Shown: piece after piece, positions 2,748 to 15,525 of the stretch
How the letters are laid out: every line of letters begins with the position of its first letter
Numbering within the stretch: position 1 is the first letter of the stretch
Source: a virus
Length of the DNA: 64,000 bases
IMG/VR virus record: IMGVR_UViG_3300042514_001858
Location: 64,001 to 128,000 of that record
Strand: one strand, 5' to 3'
Notes under the pieces: generated by a model
The model's database searches: none
What the model saw: the letters and a program-made list of their open reading frames with translations, nothing else
Told to the model about the DNA's origin: nothing
Made by a program: the position numbers and the translations under genes

Positions 2748-3502
2748 ATTTGTTTTGCTTTTAAAATGATATCTGCTGCAATGTCTGGATCAAATTTGAA
2801 AGAGATCTTAGATGACTCCATGATTCCTTCCAACCTGCCAAATTCTTCGTTTACCATTTGTTCAAATCGCTCGCATGTGTAGTATTGTGGGCTAGTTTTT
2901 AAATCCATCAATTTCTCCCAATACTTCTCATCAAATTCCTTGACATTTACCATGTATTTACCAGTGGTGAAGAACTCAATACCGACTTTACACAATCGAA
3001 GAATCTGAACAAAGTTTTTTGGACTGAACCCATAGGTTTCTACCGCTTTTTTCCTTTTACCGCCTAACTGACCGCTTCTTTGCCCAGTAGCCAATCGAAT
3101 TTCGCTGAATACATAACCCTTTAGTGAATTTTTAAGGGTATTAGTGTCGATTAGATCGTAAGCATGGGACACGATCTCATCAAAGATTGGATGTTTGTAT
3201 GTAAATGCTGTGTCGGGAGCGAATAATATCTCCAATACCTGAGTATTACTCTTTCTCAATAATTTTAAGTATCGAGTGATCTCATAATAAGTAGAGTCGA
3301 TGTCATCAGTCTGGACAATCGATTCGATATTATCCAAATTGGCTAAATATCGCTTATTTTTAGCAACAAATAGACCACGATAATCAACATCGGACTCTGG
3401 TGTGTTCAATCCATACAAAGTAGAACCACCGATCAATTGACAGATCAGCTTTCCTTCGCAATTTTTATATGCTTCGTGATTTTCAATACTATTATCTTTC
3501 AT
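2744..3502 (-). CDS. Pol-beta superfamily nucleotidyltransferase (RlaP/Nuc-transf type)
   Basis: GGSTLYGLNTPESDVDYRG motif; KNFVQILRL C-terminal motif. Confidence 0.85.
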   Translation of the reverse strand: MKDNSIENHEAYKNCEGKLICQLIGGSTLYGLNTPESDVDYRGLFVAKNKRYLANLDNIESIVQTDDIDSTYYEITRYLKLLRKSNTQVLEILFAPDTAFTYKHPIFDEIVSHAYDLIDTNTLKNSLKGYVFSEIRLATGQRSGQLGGKRKKAVETYGFSPKNFVQILRLCKVGIEFFTTGKYMVNVKEFDEKYWEKLMDLKTSPQYYTCERFEQMVNEEFGRLEGIMESSKISFKFDPDIAADIILKAKQI

Positions 3503-3527: not shown

Positions 3528-3932
3528 TCATGTCCACATGTATCCTCTATATTTTACAATAGTGTTCATCAATTCTGTATCTTTATTCAAAAACGAATCT
3601 TCCAGTGTAATAAATTCATCAATATTAGTCCCATCCCATTCATCAACCTGTTTTTTCAAAGCAGGACGCTCATTTTTCAGATAAAGATACACATCGTTAA
3701 GTTCTTTTTGTCTGAGTTTGATGGCATCCACAGTATCCTGTCTAACATGTCCCTTTTGCAACTCTTCAGAAAAGTCATAGCAAGTGTCATTAAGCCCGTC
3801 TTCTTTTTCCACATAGTGAATCAAGGAATCAAAAAGAACAATTTCGATGATTGAGTCTTTATCTATCCATTCACCTTTTAGATTGTCAGTTAGCCACTTC
3901 TGTTGGTTTTTATTTTTATTTTTCTTGCTCAT
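3528..3932 (-). CDS. Hypothetical protein
   Basis: Probable start MSKKNK at 3932; ends KYRGYMWT. Confidence 0.6.
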   Translation of the reverse strand: MSKKNKNKNQQKWLTDNLKGEWIDKDSIIEIVLFDSLIHYVEKEDGLNDTCYDFSEELQKGHVRQDTVDAIKLRQKELNDVYLYLKNERPALKKQVDEWDGTNIDEFITLEDSFLNKDTELMNTIVKYRGYMWT

Positions 3933-4125: not shown

Positions 4126-4146
4126 GCCCCGATTATACTCTAGTTT

Positions 4147-4500
4147 TTAATTATTACCAATAGTATAATTCGACAATATCTTATCACCATTTTTCATCAA
4201 ATACATCATGATCTTCTCCAGATTACCTTTCAGCTTAATTAGATCACCATTTTTTTGATATTTTTCCATTTTAATGATATTTTCCAATTTGGAAGACGCT
4301 TGAAATGCACTGTCTTGGATATTAGCTAAATATTGAGGCAGTCCTTCAAATTCATATGGGAGAGTGTCTGGTGATTGCGCCATTTTCTCATCCGTTTTAT
4401 ATTTTCTCATCTGTTCAGAAGGATTTAGAGGATTTTTGAAATCAAGATCAATAGCACCAGAGGCAATTGCAGTAGAATAAGGAGAATTTGAAGCAGCCAT
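4147..4500 (-). CDS. Hypothetical late protein
   Basis: TAAATA at 4514-4509 upstream. Confidence 0.6.
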   Translation of the reverse strand: MAASNSPYSTAIASGAIDLDFKNPLNPSEQMRKYKTDEKMAQSPDTLPYEFEGLPQYLANIQDSAFQASSKLENIIKMEKYQKNGDLIKLKGNLEKIMMYLMKNGDKILSNYTIGNN

Positions 4501-8051: not shown

Positions 8052-8247
8052 AAATAATTTCTTTTGTTCTTGTGATAAATTCCGATCTGTCACCAATTTC
8101 ACAATTGAAACAGTAGTCCCATAAATAATCTTCAATATCAGGGTTCACCAAGTTCTTGATATTGTTGTAAATTTCTTTTTGTTGATATTCAAGAGCTTGA
8201 ATATTTGCTCTCGCATCCTCTATTTGTAATTTTGTTTCTTCGTCCAT
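8041..8247 (-). CDS. Hypothetical protein
   Basis: In operon with clamp. Confidence 0.55.
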   Translation of the reverse strand: MDEETKLQIEDARANIQALEYQQKEIYNNIKNLVNPDIEDYLWDYCFNCEIGDRSEFITRTKEIIYGD

Positions 8248-8249
8248 AA

Positions 8250-8957
8250 TTAATTCTTCAGTGAGCTAAAAATATATTCCATTTCAAAATCACCACTCTT
8301 CGTGACGATACAACCAACTCCCAACTTGGAATTGATTTTGAATACATTACCAGTCTTCGATACTTTAGACAATAATTTCAAATTGTCAATCTTTAGAATG
8401 AAAGGATTGAGTTCAAATTCAACTTCATCCCCTACAATACTCAGAGTATCACTGTTTGGAACGGTTTCGTCTCCAACTTTCCACACCAAATTACCATCTT
8501 CTGTGAAAATATATAATTTCTTGGTGTTTGTGATGGAAGATTTTTGAAGAATATTGGAAAGGAAATCAAAGTCCAACTCAAATTCGATGTTATATTCAAA
8601 ATTACGAATCTTTTCCAGAGATAACTTGGGTCTAGTGATGACTCCTTCTTCATGGAGATGATATTTGAATTTGATTTGCTTATCTTTATACTCCAAATGG
8701 TTTCCGTTCAACTTTAGCTTTACAGTATCAGATGATACCATGTCTAATGCTTTGGAAAGTTTCTTCAAAGAAGGTAGATTTAAATTCTTTTCTTCAAAAT
8801 CACCTCTTAGATATGCATGAGCATACATGGAGTTATCCTCACTAGAGGAAATCCCATGTATGCCATCATCTGTCATTTCTAGAACACATGTGTCACTTAT
8901 TTGCGACAAGCTTAACAATAGGTTCTGAAACGGTTTTCTGTTTAGATTGATTTGCAT
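8250..8957 (-). CDS. gp45: DNA sliding clamp (gp45/PCNA-like)
   Basis: 235 aa two-domain beta/alpha pattern, LNLPSLKKL, NLKLL; replication context. Confidence 0.7.
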   Translation of the reverse strand: MQINLNRKPFQNLLLSLSQISDTCVLEMTDDGIHGISSSEDNSMYAHAYLRGDFEEKNLNLPSLKKLSKALDMVSSDTVKLKLNGNHLEYKDKQIKFKYHLHEEGVITRPKLSLEKIRNFEYNIEFELDFDFLSNILQKSSITNTKKLYIFTEDGNLVWKVGDETVPNSDTLSIVGDEVEFELNPFILKIDNLKLLSKVSKTGNVFKINSKLGVGCIVTKSGDFEMEYIFSSLKN

Positions 8958-9391: not shown

Positions 9392-10309
9392 TTAGTCATC
9401 TAATCCAGCAAGAAGATCGTCAATTTCATCATCGTCATCTTCAACTACTTTCTTTTTTGGGGTCGATGTCGCTTTCGACTTTACATGAACCATGGGAATG
9501 TCATCTTCATCTTCATCTTCATCGATTACTACTTCTTTTTTGGCTTGTTTTAGAGGCTTGCGCTCTTCTTTCTCTGCACCAACGAAGAAGTGTTCGTTCA
9601 GAACTTCTTGAAGCTCATCGTAAGTCTTCACGGGATAAACTGCTTCAAGATCATGAAGAGACTCACAAATCTTATCAATCTCTTCCTCATCCAAAACAGT
9701 CTTGGACTTGGTAGTGATGAACGAAGATTCGAATGTGGTGTATTCACCTTTCTTCTCAGCAACGATCTTGAAATCATGTCCTTTAGTCGGGTCGAAAATG
9801 TCCCAACCAAGTTCATCGGAACGCTCCCCTTCGGTGGCATCATCAATGATTTTCTTAATTTGTGGACCCATACGAAGAATCCTCGTAGTGCCATTGTTTT
9901 CTGGTTTAGCAGGATCATTGATCACGTAAACATTCACAAGCCACTGCTCTTTCTGAGCAATTTCTGCTTTGTATTCTTTGTTCTCAGCTTTAGGATTAGC
10001 TTCTTTCCAGCTTTTCCAAAGTTTCCAACGAAGTTCAGAGATTGGATCACGATCACCAAAAGTTTGAAGACCAATGTAGCTCATATAAGAACCTGTTGCT
10101 TTGCTATTCCAACCATTCACCCAATGATGGAAGAGACTCTTTTCAGGATTCTCCACATTAGGGATCAGACGCAGAGTGTATGTATTGCCAGCAGGAAAAC
10201 TCATAATATTTGAGAATTGTCCACCAGATGATTCATTACCCTTGTTTAAAGCTGCTTTGATCGAATCGAACATTGCAGCACCGAATTTGCTTTTTGTTTT
10301 TGTTGCCAT
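9392..10309 (-). CDS. gp32: Single-stranded DNA-binding protein
   Basis: LRLIP, NVYVINDP..PENNG, IFDP..G.DF, acidic tail IDDLLAGLDD. Confidence 0.92.
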   Translation of the reverse strand: MATKTKSKFGAAMFDSIKAALNKGNESSGGQFSNIMSFPAGNTYTLRLIPNVENPEKSLFHHWVNGWNSKATGSYMSYIGLQTFGDRDPISELRWKLWKSWKEANPKAENKEYKAEIAQKEQWLVNVYVINDPAKPENNGTTRILRMGPQIKKIIDDATEGERSDELGWDIFDPTKGHDFKIVAEKKGEYTTFESSFITTKSKTVLDEEEIDKICESLHDLEAVYPVKTYDELQEVLNEHFFVGAEKEERKPLKQAKKEVVIDEDEDEDDIPMVHVKSKATSTPKKKVVEDDDDEIDDLLAGLDD

Positions 10310-11179: not shown

Positions 11180-11460
11180 TTCTTTCTCTTTTTCTGCTCT
11201 GAATTAATGTATTTCGTGATGAACTTACTACGTGAAATAGTAGGATCATAATCTAGAAACACTTTAACAAGTTCTTGGTCAGAGTCAAGAGATAAAATGG
11301 TTTTCAAAATTGTTTTTAGCCTTTCCTCTTGGAGAGTAGTCACGAAAACATTCTGAATGGATAATTTTTTTCCTTTAAGATGATTTATAAAGGAACAATA
11401 GCATAGAAAGAGGTGATTTGTTTCCTCTTCCACAATTTCTGATGATGGATCAAAGCTCAT
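11176..11460 (-). CDS. Hypothetical protein
   Basis: Coupled overlaps with both neighbours. Confidence 0.6.
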   Translation of the reverse strand: MSFDPSSEIVEEETNHLFLCYCSFINHLKGKKLSIQNVFVTTLQEERLKTILKTILSLDSDQELVKVFLDYDPTISRSKFITKYINSEQKKRKK

Positions 11461-12320
11461 AATTCTGTAAGTGTTTCGCTGAATTTCAAAAATTCTTTGG
11501 TGATTTTACCTCCTGATGCCCATTCGCCGCCACCACCGTCACCACCGTCACACAGATTAGCAGCCATTTTAGCAATGTCAACCTCCGATCCTTTACATTT
11601 TCTAAAAGAAACGAATTTTGTATCAGGGTTCATTACAATTACAGCGTCTCCTTTATAATTTTCCATAATGGAATGGCTCAATTCATTCACGGAGAACTTA
11701 GAAATCGTGGAAATGACCTTAAATCCTTCCCATTCTCCTGTGAATAGTTGAATTTGCTCCAATTCTTTTTCTAATTCCTTGAAAAAACCTTCAGCAAGCT
11801 TAACTTCTGTGGTAGTGAACCCGTCAAACCCGTTCCAGAAGCGATTTACAAAATTAATAAAGCGATTTCCACCAGATTTACGATAAAGAGCATTGAGATA
11901 CTTGGTTTCTTCGTGTTTTAGATCATATGAATTGTAATCATCGACGTATAGGAAGAATTTTTTCAAATCTTTCGTAAATTCCACCTTTTCTTTGAATTTT
12001 TTATACAACATCTTGGTGCAAGATGAACATTCTTCCTGAATCATGGTTGAATCCCATGTTTTGAAGTCTTCGGGACGGTCTGAAACGAACACCACACGAT
12101 GATCGTCAATCTTTTTGATAAGATTTTGATCTAGAACCATGCCGACTACGAAGATTTTATCATAATCTTCTGCATTTTCTTTAGCCCATGGTAGATATTG
12201 TTCTTCAAACTTACCAAAAAAACAATGACGATACTCAAAATTCTTAAATAAATTACCTAAAAGAACTGTAGAACCAATACCATCCAAATCTGAGTTGACC
12301 CAAGCAAAGATACGTTGCAT
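11457..12320 (-). CDS. Degenerate DHH/DHHA1-family protein
   Basis: SDLDG motif I, VDDYNSY, VSFR...GGG; DHH replaced by DRP and GGGH by GGGE; start MQRIFAW at 12320 behind promoter. Confidence 0.7.
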   Translation of the reverse strand: MQRIFAWVNSDLDGIGSTVLLGNLFKNFEYRHCFFGKFEEQYLPWAKENAEDYDKIFVVGMVLDQNLIKKIDDHRVVFVSDRPEDFKTWDSTMIQEECSSCTKMLYKKFKEKVEFTKDLKKFFLYVDDYNSYDLKHEETKYLNALYRKSGGNRFINFVNRFWNGFDGFTTTEVKLAEGFFKELEKELEQIQLFTGEWEGFKVISTISKFSVNELSHSIMENYKGDAVIVMNPDTKFVSFRKCKGSEVDIAKMAANLCDGGDGGGGEWASGGKITKEFLKFSETLTEL

Positions 12321-12324
12321 GTCA

Positions 12325-12352
12325 TAATTACTCGGATTTAAAGAATTGTCAA
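12325..12352 (-). promoter_or_regulatory. Promoter TTGACA-N16-TAATTA for DHH gene
   Basis: Direct inspection; conserved in duplicate copy at 13341-13368. Confidence 0.65.
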
Positions 12353-12360
12353 TCATAATA

Positions 12361-12449
12361 ACACAACATGTCGCTCCATCCAACGGCTCAAAGTCGTCTG
12401 TTTCGTATTCAGAGTCTTACGTTCGCCGTGGATGAGCTAGACGTTCGGC
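12361..12449 (+). mobile_element. attC: Integron attC site 1 (89 bp)
   Basis: R'' ACACAAC, 5 nt, L'' GCTCCATC, CAACGGC...GCCGTG, L' GATGAGC, 5 nt, R' GTTCGGC; unpaired C and A give bottom-strand extrahelical G and T. Confidence 0.9.
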
Positions 12450-12997
12450 AAAATAATCCCCCACCCCCCTCCTCCCGACGACAAAGAGAAACAACAAACA
12501 TTATGACAGATAATACAAAGAAAGGATATTTTGATGAAAATCTCACTTTTGATGGGATACAGAAGACAATCGATGATTTAGTAACAAATTACCCAAATCA
12601 TATCGGCGTTATTACCGCAATTGGTAAGTTGGGTAGCTTAATGTCAATTTTACACGATGACAACAAAGAACAAAACCGACTAACAAAAATCCAGAATAGG
12701 CGAGTGGAGATTTTATCTTGGGTTGTCGGTGTTTGCACCTTGATTACGACATTTGCAACCATCATGAGTATCTGTAAGTGAATTACGGGCAAACCAATCC
12801 ATAATCTCTTTAACTTTTCTATCCTGTTCACGATTGAATGATTCTTGATATTCTTTTTCAGTGTCTCGTTTGTCAGCATTTGTAATAAATCTCCACATCC
12901 TAGAAAAAAATGAAGAAGCCGAACAAGACGCTCCATCCAACGGCGAAAACGTCTTTGATTGTTTCGGACTCTGTTTGCGCCGTGGATGAGCTAGACG
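12444..12997 (+). mobile_element. Integron gene cassette (554 bp)
   Basis: Begins TTCGGC; its own attC starts GCCGAAC, complementary to GTTCGGC; ends at G|TT. Confidence 0.85.
12503..12781 (+). CDS. Cassette-borne small membrane protein (92 aa)
   Basis: Canonical cassette orientation; coiled segment then C-terminal TM ILSWVVGVCTLITTFATIMSI. Confidence 0.65.
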   Translation: MTDNTKKGYFDENLTFDGIQKTIDDLVTNYPNHIGVITAIGKLGSLMSILHDDNKEQNRLTKIQNRRVEILSWVVGVCTLITTFATIMSICK

Positions 12998-13027
12998 TTG
13001 TGTATTATTTTTATTTTTATTTTTCAT
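12713..13027 (-). CDS. ORF starting outside the cassette and reading through attC2 into it
   Basis: Promoter TTGACT-N16-TACAAT 9 nt upstream; RLAHPRR...PLDGASCS is attC-encoded. Confidence 0.5.
   Translation of the reverse strand: MKNKNKNNTQRLAHPRRKQSPKQSKTFSPLDGASCSASSFFSRMWRFITNADKRDTEKEYQESFNREQDRKVKEIMDWFARNSLTDTHDGCKCRNQGANTDNPR
12918..13003 (+). mobile_element. attC: Integron attC site 2 (86 bp)
   Basis: R'' GCCGAAC-AAGAC-L'' GCTCCATC-CAACGGCG...CGCCGTG-L' GATGAGC-TAGAC-R' GTTGTGT. Confidence 0.9.
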
Positions 13028-13036
13028 AAGGTCTGT

Positions 13037-13064
13037 ATTGTATACTAGTTTTTAAGAAAGTCAA
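13037..13064 (-). promoter_or_regulatory. Sigma70-type promoter pointing into the attC array
   Basis: TTGACT-N16-TACAAT. Confidence 0.7.
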
Positions 13065-13381
13065 CCATTTGATAATTTTTGCAATAAGTCCAATTCATCA
13101 TTGTCCATAATTTCTTCCTCATCAATCTTTTTGATAAGATTTTGATCTAGAACCATGCCGACGATAAAGATTTTATCATAATCCTCTGCGTTTTCTTTAG
13201 CCCATGGTAGATATTGCTCTTCAAACTTACCAAAAAAACAATGACGATACTCAAAATTTTTAAATATGTTCCCCAAAAGAATTGTTGATCCAATTCCATC
13301 CAAATCGCTATTGACCCATGCAAAAATTCGCTGCATGTTATAATTACCAATTTCTATAAAATTGTCAATAGGTGATTCCAT
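13061..13381 (-). pseudogene. Chimeric remnant: DHH-gene 5' end fused to gp41 3' end
   Basis: 13122-13368 closely matches 12106-12352; 13104-13124 identical to 14252-14272; tail EEEIMDNDELDLLQKLS vs gp41 EEEIMDNNELSLLEKLS. Confidence 0.85.
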
Positions 13382-13411
13382 ATAAGAATCTTAGAATAGG
13401 ATTAAGAGAAA

Positions 13412-14203
13412 TCAAATAACTCTTGGTTCATTTTTAGATTTAATTACATAGCTACTCATAACCTTGTTATATAAATCAGGTTGAACTTTTTTCAACCTAT
13501 CAAAACCTATCATAGATTTATTATACATCAAATATGTTCTTATTTTTGAAAATGATTCTTTGCGTTCAACACATTCAGCATCGTAAATATATTTAATATT
13601 TCTCTCCAATCTTGTGAATCCTTTATCACCATCCTCATAACCAAAATTTAAATACCACATAATGTTATCAGGATTTTTTGGAGTTGCAGTGGTAAAAAAC
13701 CCAATTTTAAATTTGGTGTTTTCTTTTGGTTCTTGGACTCTGTTTTGTAGGCTATTAAATCCGCGTTGCCCCACTTGTGTCGAACTAGGATTATGTCCAA
13801 CCGAATATACGGAATATGCATATGCTGGATTGGATGAAAAATAGACTGAATTTCCTATAGCTTTGGAATCTTCACCCTTGGAAAAGGGGTCGGGATTTTT
13901 ATGTCCCCTATACACCAAAGAACCATCTTTAGGTAAAGAGTCGAACCCCTCTTTCAAATAAAATCCGTAATATTTCATCACCTGCTCCAGATATTCGTTT
14001 TCATCGTTACGAATATCTTGGGTAATACTTCCACTTCCCATAGTTTGTTTATACTGAACTGCATCATCACGATTTTTTTTATAAGATGCAACATCTTTAA
14101 TGGAAAAGCTATCATCTTTTCGATCAAACATAGTTCCAAAAGGTCTATTACCTTCCCTTTTTTTTGTGACAAATTCTTCAAAAAATATTTTAAACGATAC
14201 CAT
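13412..14203 (-). CDS. Late protein with ADP-ribosyltransferase-like motifs
   Basis: LVYRG, VYFSSNPAYA..Y, distal AECV; TAAATA-N5-ATG; MVSFKIFFEE N-terminus. Confidence 0.5.
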   Translation of the reverse strand: MVSFKIFFEEFVTKKREGNRPFGTMFDRKDDSFSIKDVASYKKNRDDAVQYKQTMGSGSITQDIRNDENEYLEQVMKYYGFYLKEGFDSLPKDGSLVYRGHKNPDPFSKGEDSKAIGNSVYFSSNPAYAYSVYSVGHNPSSTQVGQRGFNSLQNRVQEPKENTKFKIGFFTTATPKNPDNIMWYLNFGYEDGDKGFTRLERNIKYIYDAECVERKESFSKIRTYLMYNKSMIGFDRLKKVQPDLYNKVMSSYVIKSKNEPRVI

Positions 14204-14211
14204 TCCATTAT

Positions 14212-15525
14212 TTAATCACTCAACTTTTCAAGAAGGCTAAGTTCATTATTATCCATAATTTCTTCCTCATCATCTGCCTGATATATAGAAAGTGTGGAAT
14301 AATTAATTCTCATGGCTTGTGTCATTCCTCTCGGTCCGAACCTATTTTTCATCATTCCCAGACGAATTACTGCCATTTCTTGGTCTTCTTCGTTCTGGAA
14401 GATAGATACAATCACATCAGCAGTCATAACAATAGCCAAAGACTCAGCAACACCTGACATATCAGGGTTATTTTGTCCAACAGCAGATCTATTCAACTGA
14501 CAAGCTGAAATAATAGGGCATTTATAGACATAAGACAATGCTCTGACCTGTTCGCAGATGTTTTTACCCTTTTCATAGCTGTTACTACCAGCAGCAGTCA
14601 TCAAAGTAAGGTAATCAAGCACAATAGCATCAATTCTGATACCAGAATCTTTCATTTTCTTGATAAAAGCTCCCAATTGCTTAGGTGTAATCGTAGATGG
14701 GGGGAATTCTTTGATATAAATGCGCCCATCAGTGTTCTTATGCTCTTGTTCAAGGGCATGTCGAAGCGTTGGGACACAATTACGGAACTCCTTCATGGGA
14801 ATCTTCGTCACATTCGAAGCAATTCTCTTAGCATAGAGCGTTTCCGACATCTCCAGAGTCACAACAAGCACATGTTTACCTTGGGATGCCATGTTTGCCG
14901 CCACATTACCAAGGAAAATGCTCTTTCCAATGTTAGATTGACCCGCAAACACATACAATGCCTTACCAGCTTCTTGAAATCCACCGTCCAATGCCTCATC
15001 TAACCATGCCCATTTGGAAGAAATAGTGGTTTCATCACTCAAAATGTCATCAATGACCTTTTCAACATCACCATAAAGCTCAATTCCTTTATCAACATTG
15101 AGATTGATACCAGCAATCTTCTCAAATTTCTCCACGATCTTGGCGGTATCGGCTTCTCCTTCCGATATTTCTTCTGCTGACTCCAAAATGGAGTGATACA
15201 TGCCCCGTTCCTTGAGGAATCTTTCTGTATTCTCATACAATTCATCCTGATTGTGATTGGAATCGATCTCTTTGAATGATTCAATTAACTTTTTGAAGTT
15301 GGTTTTGAGTTCATCTGTCGTGAGATATGTCTTCACCTCTGTGAATGTGGGAAGAGATTGTCGTTTCTCGTAGAAATCTGCAACAATCTCAAAATATTTC
15401 GCAATATTTTTATCCGTGAAATACTTGGGTTGGACGTAATCAGCAATGGATGCCAGATAAGCACCATTCGTGATCGCGTTCTTCACAAGAACCTTTTCAA
15501 AATAATCAAAATCTATTTCAGACAT
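14212..15525 (-). CDS. gp41: Replicative DnaB-like helicase
   Basis: GQSNIGKS, TLEMSE, IKEFPP, LDYL, QLNR, KNRFG. Confidence 0.95.
   Translation of the reverse strand: MSEIDFDYFEKVLVKNAITNGAYLASIADYVQPKYFTDKNIAKYFEIVADFYEKRQSLPTFTEVKTYLTTDELKTNFKKLIESFKEIDSNHNQDELYENTERFLKERGMYHSILESAEEISEGEADTAKIVEKFEKIAGINLNVDKGIELYGDVEKVIDDILSDETTISSKWAWLDEALDGGFQEAGKALYVFAGQSNIGKSIFLGNVAANMASQGKHVLVVTLEMSETLYAKRIASNVTKIPMKEFRNCVPTLRHALEQEHKNTDGRIYIKEFPPSTITPKQLGAFIKKMKDSGIRIDAIVLDYLTLMTAAGSNSYEKGKNICEQVRALSYVYKCPIISACQLNRSAVGQNNPDMSGVAESLAIVMTADVIVSIFQNEEDQEMAVIRLGMMKNRFGPRGMTQAMRINYSTLSIYQADDEEEIMDNNELSLLEKLSD

Follow-up and report, generated by a model that had tools for sequence, protein, structure and literature searches.

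An uncultured T4-like phage carries, between two genes of its replication block, a pair of palindromes that are best explained as integron attC sites, with the 554 bp between their G|TT points forming an integron gene cassette that was spliced by an integron integrase (IntI). We assign a probability of about 0.78 to this reading. The phage is represented by a 154-kb IMG/VR record which is ~75% complete, and its genome size is put at roughly 200 kb. The window to which we refer throughout is a stretch of 64,000 nucleotides (64 kb) of this contig, and positions count from its first base.

Results

Structure of the two attC sites

The T4-like replication block lies on the minus strand of the window, and the palindrome pair was found on the plus strand between the helicase and the DHH genes (Table 1). 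Comparison with relatives suggests that the DHH gene starts at the ATG at 12321 (MQRIFAWV). A megablast search of 11400-14300 against GenBank phages yielded no match, and ORF263 had no match in Pfam or PHROG.

Table 1. Features around the attC pair, with their positions in the window
Feature	Position	Strand	Remarks
gp32-like SSB	9392-10309	-	member of the T4-like replication block
DHH-family phosphoesterase gene	11457..12321	-	PF01368 E = 2e-4; phrog_26954 E = 1e-8
Promoter-like site of the DHH gene	12324..12352	-	TTGACA-N17-AATTAT; 8 nt from R'' of site 1
attC site 1	12361..12449	+	89 bp; R1 66 bits, R2 61.7 bits
Putative integron gene cassette	12444..12997	+	554 bp, from TT of GTTCGGC to G of GTTGTGT
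orfA	12503..12781	+	92 aa; hydrophobic C-terminal tail; on attC top strand
Antisense ORF	12713..13027	-	104 aa; conserved predicted ORF, co-directional with the phage genes
attC site 2 (the cassette's own attC)	12918..13003	+	86 bp; R1 78.2 bits, R2 68.4 bits
Phage promoter and leader module	13027..13064	-	TTGACT, 16 nt (with TAAAAACTAG), TACAAT, 9 nt, ATG; abuts R' of site 2
ORF106 (chimeric)	13061..13381	-	106 aa; duplicate of the DHH N-terminus (88 aa) plus gp41-type C-terminal tail (20 aa)
ORF263 (accessory gene)	13412..14203	-	between gp41 and DHH solely in L245/L246-type relatives
gp41-like DnaB-family replicative helicase	14212..15525	-	PF03796 E = 9e-31; phrog_19 E = 2e-77

Site 1 reads ACACAAC-ATGTC-GCTC[C]ATCCA[A]CGGC...loop...GCCGTGGATGAGC-TAGAC-GTTCGGC and site 2 reads GCCGAAC-AAGAC-GCTC[C]ATCCA[A]CGGC...loop...GCCGTGGATGAGC-TAGAC-GTTGTGT. 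In both sites R'' ends in AAC and R' begins with GTT, as demanded by the attC grammar. The L'' and L' arms are identical in the two sites, and L'' contains one C and one A more than L', which are bulged on the R'' arm. The purine/pyrimidine consensus RYYYAAC/GTTRRRY is matched in part, GCCTAAC/GTTAGGC types being also present within the attC family. Between the 5-nt spacers ATGTC and TAGAC two of five positions could pair and between AAGAC and TAGAC none of five, the central R-L spacer being unpaired.

The R boxes are exchanged between the sites, as GTTCGGC of site 1 is the reverse complement of GCCGAAC of site 2 and GTTGTGT of site 2 that of ACACAAC of site 1. A deletion of 12444-12997 leaves a self-complementary ACACAAC...GTTGTGT site and releases a circle with GCCGAAC...GTTCGGC. 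The gap between the two sites amounts to 469 bp. No cassette body is present to the left of site 1, and the TTGTGT tail of site 2 belongs to the phage side; the left half of site 1 would be the phage-resident half of an original solo site. An earlier note on this DNA had described two palindromes of ~87 bp with the full order R''-spacer-L''...L'-spacer-R', an unpaired C and A in the L arm and reciprocally exchanged R boxes. All of this was read again from the sequence, and both pairs of 7-mers proved to be exact reverse complements; only the extent had to be corrected, since the end of site 1 had been set 2 nt short.

Recognition of the sites is strand-specific, as model R1 gave 78 and 66 bits on the plus strand compared with 14 and 13 bits on the minus strand (12.7 bits for site 1). 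Two copies are present in the 64-kb window, and the whole 154-kb contig contains the same two only. The DNA folding energies of both sites are only modestly better than those of shuffled sequences (z from -1.1 to -2.4). An Rfam search of 12200-13200 returned noise only and no match. We also considered a conserved peptide as the origin of the element (KKPNKTLHPTA on the top strand, MEARIQ... on the bottom strand), and this reading was rejected because the loop lengths of 53-58 nt do not vary in multiples of three and the stems covary. The same arrangement of sites was found in four contigs from other metagenomes (L012, L014, L017 and L026), which makes an assembly chimera, named earlier as an outcome that would overturn the finding, unlikely.

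The attC family in Verrucomicrobiota integrons

For a scan of the family we used the inner arms only (pattern CATCCAACGGC-N25-55-GCCGTGGATG). The exact pattern was found at 33 viral loci and at no fewer than 120 bacterial loci; among the matches listed, nearly all of the latter belong to Verrucomicrobiota MAGs, including Akkermansiaceae, Luteolibacter, Verrucomicrobiaceae and Terrimicrobiaceae. Integrons in Verrucomicrobia had already been noted by Cury et al. (2016, PMC4889954). Beyond the searched arms the family retains nnnnAAC-AAGnC-G.. on the left and ..C-Tnnnc-GTTnnnn on the right, and in 123 family members AAC and GTT, which were absent from the search pattern, show a conservation of 90% or more. 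In the same 123 sequences, 42 and 65 double changes reveal covariation of the two L-box pairs beside the first bulge. The bulges are fixed at alignment columns 18 and 25 on the AAC arm, the arm on which Nivina et al. (2016, PMC5027507) place the extrahelical bases of the attC top strand.

The family is linked to integron integrases in bacteria. A TIGR02249 integron integrase scored above the cut-off in four of five element-bearing genomes and in no genome of the 14 controls. Downstream of intI, and on its strand, there are 10 sites in G001:C8, one of them of 95 bits, and nine in G002:C218; a site of 81 bits is also among them. These bacterial arrays begin at the intI genes and have a spacing of 460-860 bp. 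In the loci L273 (G001:C8:1-13000) and L274 (G002:C218:6000-20600) the array lies downstream of the 3' end of intI in the same orientation; in L279 intI is divergent from the array, so that both intI layouts use the same attC family.

From the 19 sites of the two IntI-adjacent arrays in G001:C8 and G002:C218 alone we built the covariance model R2, which was thus made without the phage sites and stands in for the curated attC models (IntegronFinder attC_4, HattCI). Applied to the 64-kb window, R2 recognised both sites (Table 1) as the sole matches at E <= 1. The identification of the palindromes as attC therefore holds, as they are homologous to the arrays after intI in Verrucomicrobiota and recognised by a model of bacterial sites only.

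Neighbouring sites in an array can be compared by a chain rule, according to which the R' tail after G|TT of site n is the reverse complement of R'' of site n+1. This rule was obeyed at 4/4 positions by 11 of the 21 adjacent pairs, compared with 4.4% of random pairs, and the window pair also scored 4/4. The complementarity of R'' and R' within a site stayed at random level, and the two results together indicate cassette arrays and not autonomous palindromes. One might still regard the hairpins as REP/MITE-like selfish palindromes or plain terminators of Verrucomicrobia and their phages, unrelated to integrons; they occur in large numbers, frequently as single copies within 8-kb bacterial loci, and the conservation of their loop between families of the phylum is unusually high. 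We consider this highly improbable, since it leaves the enrichment of neighbour complementarity and the arrays starting at intI genes to be explained, and in addition Rfam gave no match and the phage holds two copies only.

Full reciprocal complementarity was restricted to the window pair among 16 scorable adjacent pairs, where 4.4% would be expected of random pairs, so that it goes beyond chance. This bears on the idea that the phage took up a ready-made piece of an array, attC(n)-cassette-attC(n+1), by illegitimate or homologous recombination, in which case phage DNA was never worked on by IntI and the reciprocity of the R boxes is fortuitous or was inherited from the donor array. Complementarity between R' of site 1 and R'' of site 2 is indeed expected of any array neighbours, but full reciprocity is expected in ~4% of them and was seen in none of the 15 other scorable pairs. 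We regard uptake of a ready-made piece as unlikely, and further points on both of its sides are given below.

In several bacterial genomes the R'' box is replaced by a shared left flank, either TGCCTTCTCATGGAAGACG or GCTGGGCACACACAAG (L121, two sites in L125, L133 and L182; also L132, L138, L140 and L195). These shared flanks may be conserved neighbouring genes or attI-type junctions.

The cassette and its genes

The left tail of the cassette, TTCGGC, is complementary to the cassette's own R'' box GCCGAAC. Its gene orfA is encoded on the attC top strand, which is the usual orientation for cassette genes. Homologues of orfA have 92-99 aa and 68-84% identity. Compared with the homologue in L280, the differences at the three codon positions number 21/13/40, with 30 synonymous and 26 non-synonymous codon changes, and judged from these counts the pattern is that of a coding gene. 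None of the three cassette ORFs had a match in Pfam or PHROGs. In a protein atlas orfA fell into unnamed clusters only, some of them from Verrucomicrobiota, and as a query against 401 sampled Verrucomicrobiota genomes it gave no match.

A homologue of orfA with 72% identity was found in the metagenome contig L279 as the first cassette, with a divergent IntI of 319 bits on TIGR02249 (cut-off 265) at a distance of 370 nt. Similarly, a homologue with 72% identity lies inside an array in L280/L281. The homologous cassette of L279 and L280 has ~558 bp and extends from G|TTGTGC to a terminal attC with the R'' box GCACAAC; in L279 and L280/L281 this attC is located ~125 nt past the stop codon. By its junctions the homologous cassette is shown to be mobile at G|TT. 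The earlier claim that the cassette is bounded at G|TT is thus borne out by the neighbour rule across the family and by the homologous cassette beside IntI.

The antisense ORF starts 9 nt after the -10 hexamer of the phage promoter, traverses site 2 and shares 69 nt with the end of orfA. Its conserved core begins with MWRFITN (12898) and is kept in L280 apart from an in-frame 12-nt indel. Homologues of this ORF show 75-98% identity.

Absence of an integrase

Neither a tyrosine recombinase (PF00589) nor an IntI was found in the 154-kb contig, which is in line with the earlier note's view that the integrase must come from elsewhere. Likewise, TIGR02249 had no match in five other array-bearing phage contigs, all incomplete. 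With two attC sites, no integron integrase nearby and no tyrosine recombinase in the contig, the phage element is a CALIN (at least two attC sites and no integron integrase nearby), a term defined by Cury et al. (2016, PMC4889954). The combination of intI and attI next to the array that marks a complete integron was not found in the contig. Since the contig is only ~75% complete, an integrase gene of the phage itself may lie in the missing part.

The gp41-DHH interval in related phages

About 30 relatives were informative for the gp41-DHH interval, which was empty in them or held unrelated inserts. A cassette at this position was restricted to the window's own subclade, and outside this subclade none of the ~30 relatives had a solo or differently filled attC here. 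A complete relative of 207 kb had no attC site anywhere. Among the loci L235-L262 the interval is empty in ~11 relatives, and others contain unrelated inserts of 350-840 nt or ORF263 (L245/L246). According to these comparisons, the interval is a hyperplastic hot spot for many unrelated inserts without attC.

The window also contains a direct repeat of 251 nt (12103-12353 and 13119-13369, 87% identical) that duplicates the 5' end of the DHH gene. Its upstream copy is fused in frame to a gp41-type tail of 20 aa, and this tail of ORF106 is 100% identical to the gp41 tail of L233. From its composition, ORF106 is the scar of an unequal recombination between two phage lineages. Going by gene order, the parents are an L245-type phage (gp41-ORF263-DHH) and an L233-type phage (gp41-cassette-DHH), which explains the presence of both ORF263 and ORF106.

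A hot spot with attC-free inserts and the lack of a solo attC at this locus mean that the block may have come by ordinary phage recombination. PeSLs are described as composite motifs of a stem-loop terminator and an early promoter, through which indels arise in the hyperplastic regions of T4-like genomes (PMC4122927, PMC2839356), and ordinary, PeSL-like recombination between promoters may have brought the block to the gp41-DHH interval (cf. PMC4122927). The attC-free inserts, the recombination scar of ORF106 with its 251-nt repeat and the missing solo attC are also what speaks for uptake of a ready-made array piece.

Promoter modules and attC sites at other loci

A promoter scan of the module next to site 2 (13064-13037) gave 10/12 matches. 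The class TAAAAACTAG-N2-TACAAT has 12 copies in the contig, all of them on the minus strand and followed by ATG after 6-9 nt. Such copies are found for example at window positions 13037-13053, 4132-4148 and 2884-2900, one copy being directed into the attC pair. In L076, L245, L268, L269 and L285 attC R' ends likewise lie directly against this module, which is fused there to ...ACACAAC|GTC, and these represent at least two further loci. The half-site recurs: in related phages the R' tail GTTGTGTAT is conserved together with the promoter/leader module at no fewer than three loci. Wherever a phage locus could be oriented, the attC top strand is antisense to phage transcription.

One of the module loci, corresponding to an empty place around window 8056-8251 in this genome, offers a direct comparison. 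L282 and L284 have different cassette bodies at this locus, and L283 is different again. L283 contains a second phage attC, ACACAAC-ACAGC-GCA[T]CACATA[A]CGCC...GGCGTATGTGTGC-TAAGG-GTTGTGT, which is joined straight to the module. L282 shows this site divided: ...G|TTCGGC is followed by a cassette of ~500 bp, an attC whose R'' is GCCGAAC, G|TTGTGTAT and the module, and the tails of this cassette are TTCGGC/GCCGAAC. By their sequences L283 appears as a solo-like state and L282 as the filled state of one locus. Since L282 repeats the architecture of the window, coincidental reciprocity is unlikely. The ready-made piece is further opposed by the ends of the block, which hug phage signals, R'' lying 8 nt from a promoter and R' being fused to a leader, and by the junction of GTTGTGT with the module, which recurs elsewhere with different cassettes. 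The landing-pad role that had been proposed for an orphan attC thus gains indirect support from the recurrent half-sites and modules and from the pair L283/L282, but at the gp41-DHH locus itself no solo attC supports it.

The position of the sites beside promoters also raises the question whether the hairpins are PeSL-type elements, with the insert shuffled by homologous recombination and the likeness to attC being secondary. A promoter-like sequence does adjoin each site (13064-13037 and 12352-12324), and the interval is of the hyperplastic kind in which PeSLs operate. Against this, the hairpins are sequence homologues of IntI-adjacent array sites of bacteria, and homologous recombination leaves unexplained both the asymmetric bulges and the exchange of the 4-nt R-box tails exactly at G|TT. 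As a replacement for the attC reading we therefore hold a PeSL origin to be quite improbable. The two readings may nevertheless be compatible, with PeSL-like recombination having moved a block whose attC also acts as terminator.

Further arrays were seen in related phages. In the T4-like phage L085 (514-2093; IMGVR_UViG_3300032326_000420) four near-identical attC sites lie ~490-520 bp apart between homologues of the genes at G000 85.6-88.1 kb and 89.9-91.1 kb. Three of the four share the right flank GTTGTTTTG, and this common flank suggests amplification within the phage. L100 (407-1793) and L089, which are 93-97% identical to this genome, have an insert of 1.39 kb with three chained attC sites of differing L-box types; it separates genes that are adjacent here (G000 136451-136465), and a phage promoter and an ATG once more stand ahead of the last R'. 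In the reverse complement of L283 a 42-nt piece of the module (3218-3259 and 3626-3667) is duplicated around a segment of ~370 nt, which ends in an attC with a mutated R' (CTT for GTT). L076 and L285 have the same attC beside the module, and L076 has an extra 1.7 kb and a second attC (R'' GCACAAC) at the R' end. The right junction of this 1.7-kb insert is canonical; the left junction, GAC|CGGATTC, is not at G|TT.

Discussion

Integrons are commonly regarded as platforms with which bacteria capture genes, and phages as targets or enemies of integrons. The element analysed in our study is a strictly phage-borne attC pair with a complete insertion footprint, and both its source attC family and a sister copy of its cassette can be traced to integrase-bearing bacterial integrons. 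We propose that the cassette originated from chromosomal integrons of Verrucomicrobiota-type bacteria, the probable hosts of the phage, and that its circle (R'' GCCGAAC, R' GTTCGGC) was most likely spliced into a single phage-resident attC (ACACAAC, GTTGTGT). Because no tyrosine recombinase was found in the phage contig, the splicing enzyme would be the integron integrase of the infected cell. We infer that IntI acted on the DNA while it was in the phage and not before its capture, and the same holds for the assignment of the splicing to a host IntI and for the identity of the host that supplied it. On the phage side, attC sits between a promoter and its start codon at R' and the promoter of the next phage gene at R'', and through this placement its top strand runs antisense to phage transcription. 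Verrucomicrobiota is the probable host phylum, and the element thereby gives a sequence-based host prediction for an uncultured phage.

A more far-reaching reading, which we offer tentatively and hold to be less likely than not, would be that a clade of large, virulent T4-like phages of Verrucomicrobia maintains its own promoter-wired attC docking sites (ACACAAC/GTTGTGT). As parts of this one reading, the hairpin would be at once a PeSL-like regulatory stem-loop and a substrate of the host integron integrase, the infecting phage would swap small cassettes with the chromosomal integrons of its host at several loci, and the cassettes would be expressed antisense from phage promoters. If this is true, docking sites would provide a site-specific route to the plasticity of the T4-like hyperplastic region. 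We found no description of promoter-linked docking sites in the literature. In any case the element lends support to the view, already published, that integron cassettes can be carried and moved by virulent phages, and it suggests a connection, open to testing, between integron recombination and the shuffling of gene modules for which T4-like phages have long been known.

Several known systems can be compared with the element. PeSLs (Arbiol et al. 2010, PMC2839356; Comeau et al. 2014, PMC4122927) share with it a hairpin beside an early-type promoter, flanked small accessory ORFs, the location in a T4-like hyperplastic region and indels between close relatives at the elements. However, PeSLs are thought to use homologous recombination, whereas the junctions described here lie at G|TT, and they are without AAC/GTT boxes, bulged bases or homologues in bacterial integrons. 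Cassette insertion outside att sites has been described for attG sites, where IntI places cassettes away from the integron platform (bioRxiv 10.1101/2022.09.11.507474). Such insertion would explain single attC sites in phage and bacterial DNA, but the target in the window is a full attC hairpin and not a bare secondary site.

The Verrucomicrobial source arrays resemble the superintegron of Vibrio cholerae with its VCR repeats, and sedentary chromosomal integrons with homogeneous attC sites in general, in that their attC sites are near-uniform. Cassettes of 0.5-0.9 kb, chimeric R' boxes and an adjacent IntI are likewise shared with sedentary integrons. Unlike in these, the Verrucomicrobial attC consensus (~90 bp, CATCCA[A]CGGC / GCCGTGGATG) is common to several families of a phylum, and intI is co-directional with the array in two genomes and divergent in L279.

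The closest precedent are the CALINs in virulent phages, including a myovirus of unknown host, which were reported by Qi et al. (2023, PMC9892861), who also showed that their phage attC sites are recombined by IntI1 at G|TTRRRY. Their work makes our finding less novel than the earlier note had assumed. Like the CALINs of Qi et al., the element comprises at least two attC sites and cassettes in a phage genome without IntI. It differs in its complete footprint with reciprocal R boxes, in the identified bacterial attC family and the homologous cassette beside IntI, and in sites that adjoin conserved phage promoter modules and lie antisense to phage genes. Moreover, the probable host phylum here is Verrucomicrobiota, and the phage sites of our study are known from sequence alone. 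Integron sites in virulent phages have thus already been published, and the element in the window is an unusually clean new example of them.
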